Shown piece by piece: positions 1-52,649 of a DNA stretch of 52,649 bases. The stretch comes from a virus (taxonomy: Duplodnaviria; Caudoviricetes). The stretch is taken from positions 1-52,649 of IMG/VR virus record IMGVR_UViG_3300003885_000004; one strand, written 5' to 3'. The position numbers were made by a program, and so were the translations under genes. The stretch's first letter is position 1; each line of letters opens with the position of its first letter. Below the pieces are notes generated by a model. The model did not search any database. It was given only the letters and a program-made list of their open reading frames with translations, and was not told the DNA's origin.

Positions 1-119
1 AACCACGAACATGTCAACCACGAACATGTCAACCACGAACATGTCAACCACGAACATGTCAACCACGAACATGTCAACCACGAACATGTCAGGATACAGA
101 ACCACGAACATGTCAACCA
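1..119. repeat. 15-bp tandem repeat AACCACGAACATGTC (6 units, a 9-bp interruption, then 1 more unit); continuous with the array at the window end
   Basis: Directly visible; same unit at 52559-52649, indicating a circular assembly junction. Confidence 0.95.
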
Positions 120-2287: not shown

Positions 2288-2785
2288 TTACCCCTCTTTG
2301 GCTTCCTGCATTTGGGCAAGCAGAGTGTCCACGTCGACGCCCTGGGCCTTCAGCTTGGAGGATAGGTCGAGCATCTTCGCGAAGTTATCCTTAAGCTTTT
2401 TCATGTCGACAGACTTTTCGGGATTAGCCTGCATATCCCTTGCCTCAACTTCAAGAGCATCCGCCTCTACTCTCTTGACTTTCGCCTCCCAAAATTTCTT
2501 AACATACGGGCCGATGAAGATTCCTGCGGGCGGGATACGGTAAACCTCTGGTATCCAAACCGGCAATCCCATAGCCTTGCACTTATCGGCGCTATCCTCA
2601 TCAGGGTAGAAGTCTATGTGCTTGGTTGTTCCATCCGGGTTGGTTGGTGCGGGCCAAATGATCTTCCGCACACTGTCTTCCTCTGGGGCCGTTTCCTCCG
2701 ATTCAACATTGGATTCGGGGGCAGGAGGAGCAACAGGAGTGGGAGGAGCAACAGGAGCAACAGGGGCAGGAGGAGCAGTAGACAT
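2288..2785 (-). CDS. hypothetical protein with Pro/Ala-rich N-terminus
   Basis: 165-aa ORF, AAGGGA RBS, followed by terminator. Confidence 0.8.
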
Positions 2786-2853
2786 TTTTAGTCCCTTTCA
2801 AAAGTGTAAAACAACAAGTTTGCAGCCGAACATCGACCGCTGAACAGTCAAGC

Positions 2854-3576
2854 TTAGTGGGTGTCTTTAGATGTGTCAAGCAGGGTGTCTGTAAAATTGG
2901 TGTCTGTGAGATCAACAGACTTGAGATCGGCAGACCAAAGATCGGCAAACTGGAGATTGGCAAACCGAAGATTGGCAGACCAAAGATCAGCAGACTGGAG
3001 ATTAGCAAACTGGAGATTGGCCGACTGGAGATTGGCCGACTGGAGATTGGCCGACTGAAGATTGGCCGACTGAAGATTGGCCGACTGGAAATCGGCAGAC
3101 TGGATATTAGCAAACCAAAGATTAGCAAATCGAAGATTGGCCGACCGAAAATTAGCAAATCGAAGATTGGCCGACCGAAGATTGGCCGACTGAAGATTGG
3201 CCGACTGGAAATCGGCAGACTGAAAATTGGCCAACTGGAAATCGGCAGACTGAAAATTAGCAAACCCAAGATTGGCCGACTGAAGATTGGCCGACTGAAA
3301 ACTGGCAGACTGAAGGTTGGCAAACTGAAGACTGGCAGACTGAAGACTGGCAGACTGAAGGTTGGCAGACCGGAGATTGGCCGACTGAAGGTTGGCCGAC
3401 TGAAGATTGGCAGACCGGAGATTGGCCGACTGAAGGTTGGCCGACTGAAGATTGGCCGACTGAAGATCAGCAGACCGTAGATCAGCAGACCGTAGATCAA
3501 GCGCTATTCCTAGGTTGTTACCCGTCTCAATCAGATATTCGACATTATCTTTCATTTTTCTGTCCTTATCTTTCAA
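2854..3576 (-). CDS. pentapeptide repeat protein
   Basis: About 40 tandem A(N/D)(L/F)(Q/R)(S/F) pentapeptides; start may be the second ATG. Confidence 0.92.
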
Positions 3577-16242: not shown

Positions 16243-16820
16243 TTGATTTTACTCATTTCATAAGCTAAACTGCTAGAGAATGAAGCTCTCTCTTTACTTG
16301 TGATAGAATAGACATTACGGACAGCACGCTTATCTCTGAGTACAGGGGCAGTGTCACAACATGTATCGCCATACTTATCTAGTAGCAGAACATGTCCCGG
16401 TACAATAACCATGTAATACGATGCAGTGCTACTCATTCTATTTTTCTTTAACTCTTTCCTTAGTGCTCCGACCGTAATGGATTCAATCTTCATAGCAGTC
16501 TCGACTATCCATCCGTGTTCTTTTAAGATATCTGTACAATCTTCTTTGTACTGAGATTCGTTCCATTCTTTGACTCCCAAATATCTCAAAATTGCTGATG
16601 TACAGGGTGTCCTGTAATACTCGATTATGTCAATCTTGTATATCTCTAGCCAACCAACCCAGTCTGTAGAGTCAGACTTAACTAGGATACAATCTGACCC
16701 TCCCATGCACTTAGGGTGGCCTACTTCTCTCAACGTTTCGAACAGAGGGCCATGCTCCTCTAGTAGAGCGAACATGTCCCCGCTTCCTACCATAGAGGTT
16801 ATCCGTTTGTCACATGACAT
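16239..16820 (-). CDS. hypothetical protein (possible Cys-His-Asp peptidase-like fold: PCT, GHVL, CDT)
   Basis: AGGAG RBS before ATG 16820; function speculative. Confidence 0.6.
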   Translation of the reverse strand: MSCDKRITSMVGSGDMFALLEEHGPLFETLREVGHPKCMGGSDCILVKSDSTDWVGWLEIYKIDIIEYYRTPCTSAILRYLGVKEWNESQYKEDCTDILKEHGWIVETAMKIESITVGALRKELKKNRMSSTASYYMVIVPGHVLLLDKYGDTCCDTAPVLRDKRAVRNVYSITSKERASFSSSLAYEMSKIK

Positions 16821-16824
16821 TATG

Positions 16825-17040
16825 CTATTCGCTCCTTTCCTCTTCAAATACTTCTCTGATTATCTTAAGTAACTCATTATCATCATTTGGTAAAACATAC
16901 CCCTTAGACAGCATTGCCCTACGTATGTTATCGTATGCTTTAGTTAATGTGACATCAACTTCGTCCGGTGTCATTTCGATACCGCGAGCATTCCTAACTT
17001 CTCTTGCAACCTTTTGCAATCTTCTTTTACTTCTTGGCAT
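16825..17040 (-). CDS. small protein, paralog 3 of a tandem triplet
   Basis: SK.RLQK......GIEMTPD.VD..L..AY..IR......G..LP.DD. Confidence 0.8.
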   Translation of the reverse strand: MPRSKRRLQKVAREVRNARGIEMTPDEVDVTLTKAYDNIRRAMLSKGYVLPNDDNELLKIIREVFEEERSE

Positions 17041-17046
17041 GTTATG

Positions 17047-17268
17047 TTATTCGCTCCTTCCCTCTTCAAATACTTCTTTGATTATCTTAAGTAACTCGTC
17101 ATTGTCATCTTCAGGTAAAATATGTCCTCTAGACAACAGTATCTTGCGTATGTCGTTGTAGGCCGAAATCAGTGTCTTATCAACTTGGTCTGGTGTCATT
17201 TCGACACCATAGGCATCTCTAATATCTCTTGTGATCTTTTGCAACCTTTTTTTACTTACCATTGTCAT
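17047..17268 (-). CDS. small protein, paralog 2 of a tandem triplet
   Basis: Same motif. Confidence 0.8.
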   Translation of the reverse strand: MTMVSKKRLQKITRDIRDAYGVEMTPDQVDKTLISAYNDIRKILLSRGHILPEDDNDELLKIIKEVFEEGRSE

Positions 17269-26672: not shown

Positions 26673-27057
26673 CTGATATTTTCTCCGCTTTCTTCAGCAT
26701 TCTACTTATACCGAACTTAGGTATCTTTAATCCCTGCTCAACAGCATTGTTATGAACTGCCTGTACAATAGCATCATGGTTAGCCCTAACCCACCTTGCG
26801 CCATTCTGATTCATTAGTTTCTCTAGGCTTATGCAACTAGCACACTTAGTATACTCGATCCTAAGAACATTAGCCCACCACTCCATTAGATTAGTAAAGT
26901 CTGTCCCTATCCCTTTGGCTGAGCAAGGATACTTTCCATCATATCTCTCAGGAGTACCAGACAGTGTCCTACCACACGATGTACACTTAACATGGTATTC
27001 GTCTACCTGAATGAATTCACAGGTTATTACATCTTTTGTTATTGTACACTTTGCCAT
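26662..27057 (-). CDS. small Cys-rich tail-associated protein
   Basis: CTSC, GIGTD..., CASC..LE..MN pattern. Confidence 0.7.
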   Translation of the reverse strand: MAKCTITKDVITCEFIQVDEYHVKCTSCGRTLSGTPERYDGKYPCSAKGIGTDFTNLMEWWANVLRIEYTKCASCISLEKLMNQNGARWVRANHDAIVQAVHNNAVEQGLKIPKFGISRMLKKAEKISDGT

Positions 27058-27062
27058 TATAG

Positions 27063-28451
27063 CTATACAAATTCCATAATAGCATCATCATTGAACAACA
27101 TATCAGCGTCATCATTGAACACCATATTACCACCACCAGACGCTAGTGAGAAGACGGAGCCTCCGTCTCTTGCTAAAACGTATCACGTACCACCATTAGG
27201 TGTACCTAACTCCGAGACAGTATTTCCTGGGTCCTGAGGGATACCATTAACCTCCATGAAAACCGGCCCCTCATCAGGGGCATTCCAAGATATAGAAATA
27301 CTTTTACAGCTCTTTGGTATTGCAGGGGCATTATCAGGTAAAGATATATTTATCTGGGCACTACCTCCGACAATAGGCAAATCCGCTAACCTAGCATATC
27401 CCCAGCTAAAAGTTTCAAATCCAGGTTCAGCACTAGGATAAATCAACCGAGCTATGAGTCTACAATTAGCGTCTCGGCATTCAACAATAGGCCGCCCTTT
27501 GGACGGAGGAGTCATAGCATTGTCTACGTCTACACATAACGTAAGAGCACCAAATAGCTCACTAGCCCCAGATATTAAAGACTTAGGGGCCTCACAAGCG
27601 TTCATCGCCCTCTGACCACCACATGAACAGGTACAAGCACCAGAGGGTATGTCTAAAACACAACCACAAGGCGGACATGTGAGATCAGAACAACCACTAA
27701 TCCCTGTAAATCCGCCAGGTAATCCGCTAGGTAAATCTTTTGAACACTCTAAGGGACGTAAACATGTTGTACTGTACCCATCATTTAAATAAATTGGATC
27801 GTTAGTTATTATACCGGCACAAGGGGATGGCGGTACACACGTATAATTAGGCGTAACGCACTGCTCTTTGCAACCACCGGTTATTGGACCAAAGTCTATT
27901 ACGAATTCGTAAGTACCTCCAGGAGCCAAGTCAGGAGAAGTCTCGGTATTAGCAGTAAGCAGAGGAAAAGGACATTCTGGTTCAGTTGGAAATTCAAACC
28001 CTAGTGAAAACGAGGGCTGGCGTAACTCTACATTTATGTTGTTTGATCCAGGAAGATTATCATTACATACAGTAATCTTAACTCTGAAATTTGGAGCATT
28101 CGGAAATGCCGGATCACAAGGACAAAACACATCCTCTAGAGGTATGTCTAATCCAAACAAGCACCCCTGCATATTACGCCCGGAGGGAAAGTTCGCTTGC
28201 ACTTGTCCAATAGTATTAGTTATGTCGTTAAATGTACTCCAGTCTGCGCTAATCTGAGAATTACAGAGATTCTCAATCGTCATACGTTTAACTACTGCGC
28301 CAGTAAGAGGACCCCCAGCTATTTCTGCAACAAAGAAATCTGCTTGTACGCCAATATTTCTAATGCAGCAAGGGTAATGATCTCTACAGCTATCATCTCC
28401 GCAGCAATTAGTGCAAGGAGATGTATTCTTAGCCCAAGGTAGTTGTGCCAT
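27063..28451 (-). CDS. Cys-rich tail protein (30 Cys); first stop is TGA at 27183, with a probable readthrough extension to TAG at 27063
   Basis: 422-aa ORF is secure; the 39-codon in-frame extension ends 5 nt before the next ATG. Confidence 0.7.
27152..27168 (-). promoter_or_regulatory. candidate SECIS-like hairpin AGACGGA-GGC-UCCGUCU
   Basis: Apical loop 21 nt downstream of the in-frame UGA. Confidence 0.45.
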
Positions 28452-28526: not shown

Positions 28527-29621
28527 TTATGGCGGGCAGCAAACGACATCGACATAGGGGACGCCATCAATGAATTTGCCCTGTATACGCTGATCCATAA
28601 CAACAGGAACACCACAATGATTGTACGTTTGTATCTCTACAGGCTGACCACCGGAATCCAGTATATCTATGAAGGTCGCAGTTCCATCTAATTTCTGTAG
28701 CCTAACGTTAGGGCCAGCAGTAGTCCCGGCAGTACCACCAGGGTTTGTAGTCGGTGTACCAGCAGGTATTGTAGCTATAGTCCAACCTATAAAGCCCACC
28801 TCAGAGTTAAGAACTATTGCCATCATACCGATTCCACTATAGGAATGGCACGCAACAACTGTATCTTTTAGAATCGTCTGTGGAGAAACATTAAAAACAG
28901 GGTCTAATAGGAAAAATGGTCCTGCGGCATTTGGATCAGCCGCTTCAAAAAGAATATTACTTGCTGGCCCTCTAGCATAAATCCTTACACTACCTTCACC
29001 CATTACCAAATTTACACCATCGTAAGGTGTCAGCTCGGTCTCTACTGCGCCTAATAGTCCATTAGTCTGTGCCAAACTAACCCATACGCCCTTAACACCT
29101 AACTTAGTCTCTGAGGGAGAAAAGCATACAAATCCTGCATTACGTTCGTCTACTGAGAAACCATTAGTTCTAATTCCACACGGATACCCAATCTTAGGAT
29201 CAGGTCCAGAAAGGGAACAAAAATACCTACGACCCGGAACTATAGGATAAGCGTATCCTTCCCGATTAGCCTTTATAGGTACTTGTCCATTAGTATAATA
29301 ACTTAATAAAGAACCATCACCATTAACACTAGTGGTCCCTAACCTAGACACAAACATAGGGATAGGGTCTTTAGAATTTGTACTTGAACCAGTCCTAATC
29401 CCGAACACGCTAAAAGAGCCATAATCTTCAGGAGGCACTACAAAGATAGGGTCAGGGTCTACATATAGTTGAGTGTTTTGATATGTACCTGAGTCTGTGA
29501 CATGCCCAGCCTCTATCTTCATCTCCCTCTGTGCCATAGCCCTATAGGCATTCAAATCCTCATGTCTAATACCAAGATCGCCTTTAGAGTATTCTCGTAT
29601 TTGTGAAGGGTCTATGGCCAT
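28527..29621 (-). CDS. minor tail protein
   Basis: Position in the tail module. Confidence 0.65.
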   Translation of the reverse strand: MAIDPSQIREYSKGDLGIRHEDLNAYRAMAQREMKIEAGHVTDSGTYQNTQLYVDPDPIFVVPPEDYGSFSVFGIRTGSSTNSKDPIPMFVSRLGTTSVNGDGSLLSYYTNGQVPIKANREGYAYPIVPGRRYFCSLSGPDPKIGYPCGIRTNGFSVDERNAGFVCFSPSETKLGVKGVWVSLAQTNGLLGAVETELTPYDGVNLVMGEGSVRIYARGPASNILFEAADPNAAGPFFLLDPVFNVSPQTILKDTVVACHSYSGIGMMAIVLNSEVGFIGWTIATIPAGTPTTNPGGTAGTTAGPNVRLQKLDGTATFIDILDSGGQPVEIQTYNHCGVPVVMDQRIQGKFIDGVPYVDVVCCPP

Positions 29622-45993: not shown

Positions 45994-46398
45994 CTACCTA
46001 CTGCGGAACCTTGTACGAGTAGTTTGATTAAGAACTGTTTTACCAAGCGAACGATCCCTATTCTTAAGCCTTCGATAAAGAAGTTTAAGAACAATCGGCC
46101 GCAGTTCTAACTCACCAATGCCAATATTAGCACCAATGTTTGCTCCAATACCAATACTAGAGCATACACCACCTAGAACAGGCACTTGCATTTGCTGCAT
46201 AGCGTACCCTGGGTAGTTGCTCACAGTTTGGCTTAACTGTTGTGTAGTCTGTGATACAATCACTGGCCCCCCAATCTGGGATGTCATTGATCCAGCTACG
46301 ACAGGGGCGAGAGGGATGTCTGTCTGACCCGCAGTAAGACTCCTATTCAACGACAACACTAACAACACTGACATACAACATACAATCTTTCCCATCAC
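45994..46398 (-). CDS. secreted/membrane protein with basic C-terminus
   Basis: Signal-peptide-like N-terminus; GGGAAG RBS. Confidence 0.6.
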   Translation of the reverse strand: MMGKIVCCMSVLLVLSLNRSLTAGQTDIPLAPVVAGSMTSQIGGPVIVSQTTQQLSQTVSNYPGYAMQQMQVPVLGGVCSSIGIGANIGANIGIGELELRPIVLKLLYRRLKNRDRSLGKTVLNQTTRTRFRSR

Positions 46399-46405
46399 AC
46401 TTCCC

Positions 46406-47047
46406 CTATCTTAAGATTAAAGAACAGTAAGTACCTTTTCTTGTCTTTACGCAGGAGGCACCAGCCTTACGAAACCTATTCGACATAGCGTAGCAAGCAT
46501 TAGCAATCGGGTTACCTCTACTGCTGTAAGACACTCCTTCAGCCCTGCCCGGACTAAAACTACCCCTTACATGAGACATTCGCCCATTCCTAGCTTGTCT
46601 GTTAGCCCTTTCACTAGCTACTTTAGTTAAACTGGCATCATATTGATACTCAGGTAACCCTTTAGCCCGTCTACGATTGTTCAAAACAGCCAAGTCATTG
46701 TTCTGTACAGACTGTACAGACTGACCCCCTAGAGTTCATGTAGGGCAAAGGTCAACTGCTTGTTGTGCAATCTGTCCCTGTAAGTCCTGCAATTGTGCAA
46801 TAGATTCCTCAGATTTTGATTGCCCTAGTTGCGCCATTAAGGCTTTCTGATGATTCACCCTCTCCAACAAACTAACTAATACTTGCTGCTGCTTCAACAA
46901 TTCCAGACGTTGTATCTGTTGTTGTTTGAATTGTTCTAACTGTTGTTCCTGCTGTATTACAAATTGTTGCAAAGATACAGCATCAATATCCTCAGTTTGA
47001 GCCGAAAGAGGAACTACAAACAACAGTAAACACAAAAACATTCTCAT
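46406..47047 (-). CDS. secreted coiled-coil + CxxU + CAP (SCP/PR-1) domain protein, candidate selenoprotein (ORFs 46736..47047 and 46406..46693 joined across the in-frame TGA at 46736)
   Basis: Signal peptide and Q-rich coil, then CPT-TGA-TLGGQ..., then CAP motif N..R...GL.....D.SL...A...A..QA..G.MSH...AEGV; the CAP part begins only at a TTG without a clear RBS. Confidence 0.65.
46694..46725 (-). promoter_or_regulatory. candidate SECIS hairpin GUCA..UCUGUACA-GUC-UGUACAGA..UGAC
   Basis: Apical loop starting with G, 23 nt downstream of the in-frame UGA. Confidence 0.5.
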
Positions 47048-47196
47048 TTAACCACCTCTTCTGAATAGCGAACTAAAAGAGTTCTCCACAAAAACGTTGC
47101 GCCAGGTTTAGATACAGTAATAAACCGACGGTATGCCCTAATCATCAATTTTTCATCATCAGACAATATATCATTGTCCGTCTTTTCTGTACACAC
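47044..47196 (-). CDS. hypothetical 50-aa protein (below ORF-track cutoff)
   Basis: GTG directly after the upstream TAA; ends in an ATGA overlap. Confidence 0.45.
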   Translation of the reverse strand: MCTEKTDNDILSDDEKLMIRAYRRFITVSKPGATFLWRTLLVRYSEEVVK

Positions 47197-47397
47197 TTAA
47201 TCACTCTTTGCACTAGAGATTACGTACCCATTAAGAATAGCTACTAGAGCTAAGACAAAAGACAAAGCCCTTTCATTCTGCTCTGCTGTAGCAACCTTTT
47301 CAACACTAATAAGGTCATACACAAGCCCAAGCAACAACATGCTAATGGAGAGAGTCAAAATCAACATGATAAAGTCTATAGGGGCCCATTTAGACAT
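47197..47397 (-). CDS. two-TM membrane protein, holin candidate
   Basis: 66 aa with two hydrophobic helices. Confidence 0.5.
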   Translation of the reverse strand: MSKWAPIDFIMLILTLSISMLLLGLVYDLISVEKVATAEQNERALSFVLALVAILNGYVISSAKSD

Positions 47398-52558: not shown

Positions 52559-52649
52559 ACCACGAACATGTCAACCACGAACATGTCAACCACGAACATG
52601 TCAACCACGAACATGTCAACCACGAACATGTCAACCACGAACATGTCAA
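52559..52649. repeat. 15-bp tandem repeat ACCACGAACATGTCA x6, continuous with the window start
   Basis: Directly visible. Confidence 0.95.

Follow-up and report, generated by a model that had tools for sequence, protein, structure and literature searches.

Organization of the locus

The window analysed here, a 52,649-nt stretch of DNA (IMGVR_UViG_3300003885_000004) from a phage of a hydrothermal-vent sample, contains on its minus strand an ORF of 103 codons (46736..47047) that ends with Ala-Val-Asp-Leu-Cys-Pro-Thr followed by TGA. The same reading frame continues beyond this TGA (TLGGQSVQSVQNNDLAVLNNRRR...) to a TAG at 46406..46408, such that the joined gene (46406..47047, minus strand) comprises 213 codons including the in-frame TGA. 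Read in this way, the gene begins with a putative signal peptide of about residues 1-16 (47000..47047; MRMFLCLLLFVVPLSA|Q), noted by inspection of the sequence and including a helix predicted by AF2 at residues 3-10, followed by a Gln-rich coil of residues 21-99 (46751..46987) predicted as helices 21-76 and 80-99 with pLDDT of 85-96. The codons for Cys101-Pro-Thr (TGC CCT ACA, 46739..46747) and the in-frame TGA, codon 104 (46736..46738), lie in a predicted disordered linker (pLDDT below 50) that precedes a CAP/PR-1-like domain of residues 117-213 (46409..46699). Assignment of this domain was based on a Pfam PF00188 score of 28 bits against a cut-off of 21.1, an AF2 model with pLDDT of 96-98 in which the domain helix starts at residue 117, and Foldseek matches to CAP structures 5v51, 4h0a, 5vhg and 4d53 (E about 9e-4, probability 1.0), CAP structures accounting for all of the top hits. 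The ESM Atlas also confirmed the CAP family, although the taxa were uninformative. His159 and Gly171 were invariant and Glu170 nearly so.

The downstream ORF (46406..46693) starts at a TTG (Leu119, 46691..46693), which together with a TTG at 46682..46684 represents the only in-frame start candidates. No Shine-Dalgarno-like word was found upstream of this ORF, although the same was true of many other ORFs in the window. A 15-nt spacer (46721..46735) separates the TGA from a hairpin, UCUGUACA-GUC-UGUACAGA (46702..46720; 8 bp, -8.0 kcal/mol), with its loop 23 nt after the UGA and a GUCA/UGAC extension in the minimum-energy fold. Everything that the original prediction described in the sequence is present there, including its caveat that the hairpin is also a 9-nt tandem duplication; the duplication is perfect and surrounds the palindrome TGTACA, the hairpin follows from it automatically, and the genome holds many such short duplications. 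An assembly error was ruled out, since an independent Logan contig of the probable source run, with a depth of 35, was identical over 46300..47200. TGA is otherwise an ordinary stop codon in this genome, ending 17 of 44 minus-strand ORFs of at least 120 aa, and both code 4 or 25 and phage stop-codon reassignment were rejected. Profile searches (PHROGs and Pfam) assigned no function to neighboring genes and revealed no endolysin among those scanned.

Conservation of the UGA and flanking sequences

Scans of viral contigs with the protein, with three alignments, with the terminase and with the protein of the second site described below, as well as a metagenome scan, returned only one relative with DNA (L002/G406, 49 kb), the protein of which was 75% identical. 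In this relative, the UGA was retained in frame and preceded by TGC CCC ACG, the differences in the Pro and Thr codons being synonymous. Synonymous sites were saturated (pS 0.6-0.99) whereas pN was 0.22 in the N-half, 0.18 in the linker and 0.13 in the CAP domain, indicative of purifying selection on both halves and on the linker. The linker indel was 12 nt and therefore in frame, and all changes in codons 110-121 were synonymous. No ATG, GTG or TTG was present between the TGA and codon 119 of the window or codon 122 of the relative, and Leu119 (TTG in the window) was CTA in the relative, a Leu to Leu difference of two changes at a position upstream of the relative's only start candidate. Retention of TGA is not in itself informative, as 8 of 14 TGA stops in the window were kept in the relative.

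More distant phage homologues (P0001-3) are single ORFs of 204-205 aa with signal peptide, coil and CAP domain, and the residues NNDLA, which lie before or at the TTG, were invariant in all 5 sequences. These closest fused homologues, however, lack the 14-residue segment that contains the Cys-Pro-Thr motif. Other phage relatives have the gene split at the same junction but without CPT; thus, the N-half ORFs P0014, P0015 and P0040 end with DDL, DSL and APL, respectively. Neither recoded protein had a match in the phages collection, and the terminase, about 31% identical to those of enterobacterial and Pseudomonas phages, was uninformative as to host.

An in-frame CxxC, mostly CPKCGxxH, was noted upstream of the CAP domain in 43 of 46 planctomycete loci. 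Among 64 proteins with the CAP anchor, 29 had this motif at distances of 65-180 residues from the anchor, the distance of 68 in the window resembling the shortest group (65-70). CPT-UGA aligned with CxxC in MAFFT alignments of chosen short-linker homologues, even with TGA masked as X, in which case C101 was invariant in 18 of 18 sequences, and P0009 reads CPTC. In a quick tree, the phage clade was found within a starred 45-row set in which 26 of 36 non-phage rows carried CxxC. In contrast, only the two phages had Cys in the corresponding columns of an unselected 105-row alignment. Thus, the Cys/Sec pairing is a match of motif and spacing rather than a robust alignment column. In addition, the phage motif lacks the G and H of CPxCGxxH, and none of the 45 planctomycete loci with sufficient upstream sequence had a TGA at this position.

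Hairpin structure

The published constraints for bacterial SECIS elements (PMC13188914), which include a loop of 3-9 nt, a stem of 4-16 bp, G in the first two loop positions, spacing of 16-37 nt and MFE of -7.5 or lower, were formally satisfied in both phages. In the window, the values were 8 bp, a GUC loop, 23 nt and -8.0 kcal/mol for the hairpin (-13.5 for 51 nt). In the relative, the loop and the spacing were identical, although 10 of 15 nt in the spacer differed, and the 18 nt at 46700..46717 were invariant, but the hairpin was weak, having only 5 contiguous bp (-1.9 kcal/mol), with one pair broken by a synonymous U>C change, and reaching -9.5 only with an outer stem. This 18-mer occurred elsewhere in IMG/VR only in unrelated contexts. 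The window hairpin ranked 15 of 1869 TGA contexts (0.008) in a comparison of model-compliant hairpins, whereas that of the relative ranked 273 of 1534 (0.18). Folds of 51-81 nt were not better than dinucleotide shuffles (z -0.15, -0.84 and -0.72, with further values of -0.07 and +0.10), and no Rfam match was obtained at gathering score, only chance lncRNA rows at E about 1. The GUC loop has parallels in planctomycete selD SECIS hairpins, which had GUC or GGUCG loops 26-33 nt after the UGA in 3 of 5 genomes examined.

A second conserved UGA with a downstream extension

A similar layout was noted in a second candidate read-through gene (27066..28451, minus strand), which specifies a Cys-rich tail-module protein (27183..28451; 422 codons) ending at a conserved TGA (27183..27185) that is followed by a conserved 39-codon extension (27066..27182). 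As at the first site, the UGA follows Thr and is followed, in this case 13 nt later, by an 8-bp hairpin, GAGACGGA-GGC-UCCGUCUU (27151..27169; -9.7 kcal/mol, rank 0.012), with its loop 21 nt after the UGA. The first 15 codons of the extension contained 6 synonymous changes and 1 non-synonymous change between the two phages. An antisense ORF (26992..27237) does not account for this conservation, as it is broken and without a start in the relative. The second site lacks any Cys context or redox motif. Only these two sites showed conserved extensions.

Possible mechanisms of expression

The original prediction that the UGA is decoded as selenocysteine by borrowed host machinery, yielding a 213-aa exported selenoprotein, with a truncated form when selenium is low, was partly supported. 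The tests it proposed mostly came out in its favor but none was decisive. In the explanation considered most likely, to which we assign a probability of about 0.4, 46406..47047 is one gene for a presumably exported protein. Termination at UGA would give the 103-residue coil as the default product, while a fraction of ribosomes would recode the UGA through SelB-dependent insertion of selenocysteine directed by the hairpin, to give the 213-residue coil-CAP protein with a C-P-T-U motif apparently at the place where cellular homologues have a C-P-x-C knuckle. This interpretation depends on Sec machinery in a host that remains unidentified. SelB scored above its cut-off in 281 of 401 sampled genomes of the candidate host phylum, Planctomycetota, and planctomycete selenoproteins have been reported (PMC4807772), but only 15 of 44 genomes that hold the CAP family had SelB, and the phage GC of 42.8% is probably low for Pirellulaceae. 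No tRNA or Sec gene was found in either phage.

Programmed leaky read-through of UGA without selenium, most likely by tRNA-Trp, is somewhat less likely but draws on all of the evidence that the UGA is read through. A near-cognate tRNA acting at both sites would give a fixed low ratio of long to short product, as in Qbeta coat/A1, with the hairpins either stimulatory or incidental. The second site, which has no Cys context, fits a general read-through device as well as it fits Sec, the focal hairpin is weak in the relative, and all four UGAs of the two phages are preceded by Thr ACA or ACG, which could be a termination-context effect. On the other hand, this mechanism does not explain why the stop appears to be located exactly on the second Cys of a family CPxC motif, which Trp would destroy, or the presence in the window of two hairpins with SECIS geometry and conserved spacing, and hairpin-stimulated non-Sec read-through does not appear to be established in bacteria.

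Expression as two cistrons, in which the coil with its C-terminal Cys-Pro-Thr is a complete secreted protein and the CAP domain is made by termination-reinitiation at the downstream TTG, is considered unlikely, although it is consistent with several findings. Three further relatives have separately called halves, the CAP halves P0119 and P0007 starting with MQT. The 18 nt are invariant even at synonymous sites, which is more typical of an RNA or DNA element, which in this scheme would be part of the initiation region, than of protein constraint. Another gene ends with VVCCPP-TAA in both phages, so that a Cys-Pro C-terminus can be natural here. However, the absence of earlier start codons, the occurrence of CTA in place of TTG119 in the relative, the in-frame indel and the fused state of P0001-3 argue against this possibility, and the M of P0119 and P0007 may only be the first start codon found by the gene caller after an in-frame stop. 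Moreover, a CAP domain without its signal peptide would stay in the cytoplasm, whereas nearly all homologues for which N-termini were read begin with a hydrophobic stretch. Gene decay following a TGY>TGA nonsense mutation in the common ancestor would place the mutation on the second Cys of the motif, as Cys codons are one change from TGA, but is very unlikely given that the CAP half has pN of 0.13 against pS of 0.69 (a ratio of about 0.08) over saturated divergence, with no further stops and no frame-breaking indels.

Relation to known systems

Like bacterial selenoprotein genes, the locus has a conserved in-frame UGA, a downstream hairpin within the coding sequence with G-U at the start of a 3-nt loop, and CxxC homologues, although alignment of their Cys with the UGA is uncertain, and would give a truncated product if Sec is not inserted. 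It differs in being carried by a phage and in having the motif in a disordered linker of a CAP-domain exoprotein rather than in a thioredoxin-like fold. As in Qbeta coat/A1, for which UGA read-through is established, a UGA would separate a short product from a C-terminally extended one, and the second site would extend a structural-module protein; Qbeta, however, is an ssRNA phage in which read-through apparently needs no downstream hairpin, whereas the present phage is dsDNA and has hairpins 13-15 nt after the UGA at two sites. Selenoproteins of eukaryotic viruses, probably including poxvirus glutathione peroxidases, would share dependence on host Sec machinery but involve eukaryotic 3'-UTR or coding SECIS elements and known selenoenzyme families, whereas a bacterial-type SECIS in a family not known to hold Sec would be used here. 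Compared with secreted proteins of the CAP/PR-1/SCP superfamily such as Borrelia BB0689 and S. aureus SAV1118, the domain is short (about 97 residues) and is preceded by a coiled coil and what may be a CxxU/CxxC knuckle.

Our literature searches found no paper that describes a phage selenoprotein, and passages of a 2026 review of prokaryotic selenoproteomes do not mention phages or viruses. A broader possibility, doubtful but not excluded, is that this phage lineage uses the host SelB/SECIS machinery at two late genes, with selenium supply and SelB activity setting the ratio of short to long products. These would then be the first phage-encoded selenoproteins, and Sec decoding would serve as a read-through switch rather than only for redox chemistry. 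If the UGA is read as Sec, phages can tap the most specialized translation pathway of the host, the CAP family gains a Sec member and selenium availability becomes a possible regulator of phage gene expression. If the UGA is read through without Sec, two hairpin-associated read-through sites in a dsDNA phage would still be unusual and would give a compact system for studying recoding signals in bacteria. Either way, standard annotation splits this gene in two and truncates the tail-module protein.

General features of the phage genome

The window is a complete virus record of 52,649 bp with direct terminal repeats, a GC content of 42.8% and nearly all genes on the minus strand. Genes for a family-A DNA polymerase, a primase/MCM-type helicase, an SNF2 helicase, an E-type major capsid protein, a Mu-like portal, a tape-measure protein and a terminase were identified whereas no tRNA and no Rfam family was found. 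The one sequencing run that contains it is labelled a hydrothermal-vent metagenome. TGA terminates 17 of the 44 minus-strand ORFs of at least 120 aa, compared with 21 for TAA and 6 for TAG, so TGA is a normal stop in this genome. Repeats were also noted, including direct terminal repeats (1..91 and 52559..52649) that consist of a 15-nt unit repeated 6.1 times at each end, an array of about 38 copies of a 15-nt unit (2916..3497) inside ORF 2703..3500, which gives a weak extensin-like Pfam hit far below its cut-off, and a 225-nt unit repeated twice with a 76% match (16820..17257) that spans the small ORFs 16825..17040 and 17047..17268, which are probably tandem paralogues.

In-frame UGA and downstream hairpin of the coil-CAP gene

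The original prediction, which described a CPT-UGA motif within an open frame that joins a secreted coil to a CAP domain and is followed by a SECIS-like hairpin, was confirmed in every detail of the sequence observation. ORF 46736..47047(-) ends ...AVDLCPT-TGA, and the same frame runs on through TLGGQSVQSVQNNDLAVLNNRRR... to TAG at 46406, giving 213 codons. The downstream ORF starts at TTG and no Shine-Dalgarno word was found before it, although none was found by the same method for many other ORFs either. The Pfam CAP profile scores 28 bits against a cut-off of 21.1 and begins at joined residue 119. The hairpin, UCUGUACA-GUC-UGUACAGA, lies at 46702..46720 with its loop 23 nt after the UGA, and is also a perfect 9-nt tandem duplication in a genome that contains many such duplications. 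An independent assembly at depth 35 was identical over 46300..47200, but as this assembly probably comes from the source sample, the agreement verifies the assembly rather than the biology. The gene belongs to a run of small proteins with hydrophobic N-termini (45994..47397, minus strand; 66 aa, 50 aa, the coil-CAP gene and 134 aa) located just upstream of the terminase, which resembles the position of a lysis cassette, although no endolysin, holin or spanin family was detected in the ORFs scanned.

Conservation of the UGA in a related phage

Only one other genome with DNA was found, a 49-kb IMG/VR contig (designated G406) with a CheckV completeness of 77% and a joined protein that is 75% identical to that of the window. 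This relative has TGC CCC ACG TGA where the window has TGC CCT ACA TGA, the frame is the same, and 18 nt (GTACAGTCTGTACAGAAC) starting 17 nt after the TGA are invariant. Synonymous sites are saturated between the two phages (pS 0.61-0.99) whereas pN is 0.22 in the N-half, 0.18 in linker codons 105-118 and 0.13 in the CAP domain. The first five codons after the TGA differ at 10 of 15 nt while codons 110-121 show only synonymous changes, including TTG>CTA at Leu119, which in the relative lies upstream of its only candidate start (TTG at Leu122). The one linker indel is 12 nt and lies after the hairpin, so both the frame and the distance from the UGA to the loop are kept. Retention of TGA is not informative on its own, however, since 23 of 41 orthologue pairs aligned to their C-termini share the stop codon and 8 of the 14 TGA stops of the window are kept.

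Homologues of the joined protein

A search of 5.8 billion proteins with the joined protein gave three hits among 225 candidates, each a single ORF of 204-205 aa with a signal peptide, Gln-rich coil and CAP domain but without a 14-residue segment that includes CPT-UGA. An exhaustive phmmer search of 1.84 billion representatives gave 114 hits, among which were three ORFs that contained only the N-half, ending ...YVDDL (P0014), ...EQCIDSL (P0015) and ...TSTAPL (P0040), as well as CAP-half ORFs that started MQTVQQ... (P0007) and MQTDSNDL... (P0119). Thus, the coil and the CAP domain are separated by a stop at about the same junction in at least four lineages, although without DNA from the additional lineages, the stop codon, the frame and any hairpin are not known, which is the largest gap in the case. 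The C-terminus of P0007, from an ENA contig of 4818 bp, departs from all relatives after ...ACYAMSRK, as if by a frameshift or an assembly error.

Correspondence of CPT-UGA with a Cys motif of cellular homologues

Many cellular homologues carry a C-x-x-C knuckle, typically C-P-K-C-G-x-[VI]-H, between the signal peptide and the CAP domain. Of 116 proteins examined, 64 have the CAP anchor motif as defined by regular expression, and of these, 29 have CxxC upstream at 65-180 residues and 35 have none; the other 52, which lack the anchor so defined, were not scored. Cys101 of the window lies 68 residues before the anchor, like the shortest group (65, 66, 69, 69 and 70), and one homologue, P0009, reads CPTC. 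A genome scan with a single pattern (GS[FY][AS]PGR[YA]EG) returned 46 loci with titles that all name apparent planctomycete taxa, but this taxonomic range is biased since the pattern was derived largely from such sequences. An in-frame CxxC precedes the domain in 43 of the 46 loci, the exceptions being L032, L034 and L039, the last of which is cut by the contig end. None of the 45 loci with enough upstream sequence has an in-frame stop within 90 codons, as counted by eye. These planctomycete genomes (L005..L050) contain a secreted family with a signal peptide, a C-P-K-C-G-x-V-H knuckle, a Ser/Thr/Pro-rich linker of variable length and a short CAP domain.

CPT-UGA was aligned with CxxC by MAFFT when the homologues were chosen for short linkers, both in a set of 12 rows and in a set of 18 rows with TGA read as X, where Cys101 is invariant. 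In contrast, only the two phages have Cys in those columns of an unselected 105-row alignment. The pairing is therefore a match of motif, order and spacing in a variable linker and not a robust homologous column. In a quick tree of the CAP domains, the nine phage-clade rows form one clade (SH-aLRT 99) inside a supported set of 45 rows in which 26 of the 36 non-phage rows carry CxxC.

Comparison of the hairpin with bacterial SECIS elements

The published bacterial SECIS model (PMC13188914) specifies a loop of 3-9 nt, an upper stem of 4-16 bp, G in one of the first two loop positions (often followed by G or U), 16-37 nt between the UGA and the loop and an MFE <= -7.5 kcal/mol. The element of the window has an 8-bp stem, a GUC loop, 23 nt spacing and an energy of -8.0 kcal/mol for the hairpin alone and -13.5 for 51 nt. 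The corresponding element of the relative has a 5-bp stem, below which a synonymous U>C makes a C.A mismatch, the same loop and spacing, and an energy of -1.9 kcal/mol for the simple hairpin and -9.5 for 51 nt with an outer stem. Only 28 of 1867 TGA triplets in the window have a compliant simple hairpin at or below -7.5, and in a fold-based ranking the site of the window is 15 of 1869 whereas that of the relative is 273 of 1534. Against this, folds do not beat dinucleotide shuffles (z -0.15, -0.84, -0.07, -0.72 and +0.10) and no Rfam family matches. For comparison, selD with one in-frame TGA was present in each of five SelB-positive planctomycete genomes, with hairpins that have a GUC loop 33 nt after the UGA in one genome, GGUCG 26 nt after the UGA in two and different predicted loops in the other two.

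SelB (TIGR00475) scores over its cut-off in 281 of 401 sampled Planctomycetota genomes but in only 15 of the 44 genomes that contain the CAP family (0 of 5 in one set and 15 of 39 in another). Planctomycetes with complete Sec machinery and selenoproteins have been described (PMC4807772). The link between the phage, whose host is not identified, and planctomycetes rests only on the CAP family.

Predicted structure

The AlphaFold2 model obtained with the 105-row alignment has a mean pLDDT of 85, with predicted helices at residues 21-76 and 80-99, a disordered stretch at residues 103-114 (pLDDT below 50) that holds the UGA, and a confident domain at residues 117-213 (pLDDT 96-98), the first helix of which starts at residue 117, before both TTGs. 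The top Foldseek matches are all CAP/PR-1 structures (5v51, 4h0a, 5vhg and 4d53; E about 9e-4, probability 1.0). The CxxU would therefore sit in a flexible linker and not in a thioredoxin-like fold.

A second conserved in-frame UGA

A second candidate site was noted during calibration of the hairpin test. Gene 27183..28451(-), which is 422 codons long, Cys-rich, located in the tail module and without a Pfam family, ends ...ELGTPNGGT-TGA (TGA at 27183..27185), and an 8-bp hairpin (GAGACGGA-GGC-UCCGUCUU, -9.7 kcal/mol) begins 13 nt downstream with its loop 21 nt after the TGA. The next 39 in-frame codons (joined gene 27066..28451, minus strand) are conserved in the relative, with 14 of the first 15 residues identical and 6 synonymous changes against 1 non-synonymous, and there is no in-frame start before codon 20. 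The relative keeps a 6-bp version of the hairpin with an AGGUG loop, and the ranks are 23 of 1869 in the window and 69 of 1534 in the relative. An antisense ORF (26992..27237, plus strand) shares third codon positions with this frame but is interrupted and has no start in the relative, so we read it as a shadow ORF. Among all 48 orthologue pairs with alignments that reach within five residues of both C-termini, only this site and that of the coil-CAP gene have a conserved in-frame extension without an adjacent start; the one TAA case is simply the ATG of the next gene. All four UGAs (46736..46741 and 27183..27188, including the preceding codon, and the G406 equivalents) follow a Thr codon (ACA or ACG), while the base after the UGA varies (A, C, T and T). 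Thus, the lineage appears to use UGA recoding at two late genes with the same layout, which strengthens the link between the hairpins and recoding but equally fits a general read-through device.

Interpretation of the in-frame UGA

Recoding of the UGA in the coil-CAP gene is considered likely (probability about 0.7-0.75) on the grounds of the fused ancestry, purifying selection downstream, the in-frame indel, the synonymous-only changes upstream of the start candidate of the relative, the lack of a credible independent start, a predicted domain helix that begins before the TTGs and a second candidate read-through site. Within recoding, selenocysteine is favoured by the CPxC correspondence, by the SECIS-like geometry and conserved spacing, and by what appears to be the status of Sec as the only established hairpin-dependent UGA recoding in bacteria. 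This reading is weakened by the weak hairpin in the relative, the origin of the hairpin as a duplication, the absence of a redox context at the second site, the fragile alignment, the unknown host and the occurrence of a natural Cys-Pro C-terminus elsewhere in the phage. The latter was noted in the 364-aa protein encoded by 28527..29621(-), which ends ...VDVVCCPP-TAA, at a true TAA stop, in both genomes and, together with the neighbouring 422-aa protein, makes the tail module unusually Cys-rich. Selenocysteine insertion remains a tentative interpretation, with a probability of about 0.4. Near-cognate read-through is somewhat less probable, two coupled cistrons are unlikely and decay of the gene is very unlikely, with a small remainder unassigned.

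No paper describing a phage selenoprotein was found in the literature searched, which is not the whole literature, and the phrase 'viral selenoprotein' appeared only in papers on eukaryotic viruses. If the Sec reading is true, the coil-CAP gene represents a known mechanism in a new carrier and a new protein family.
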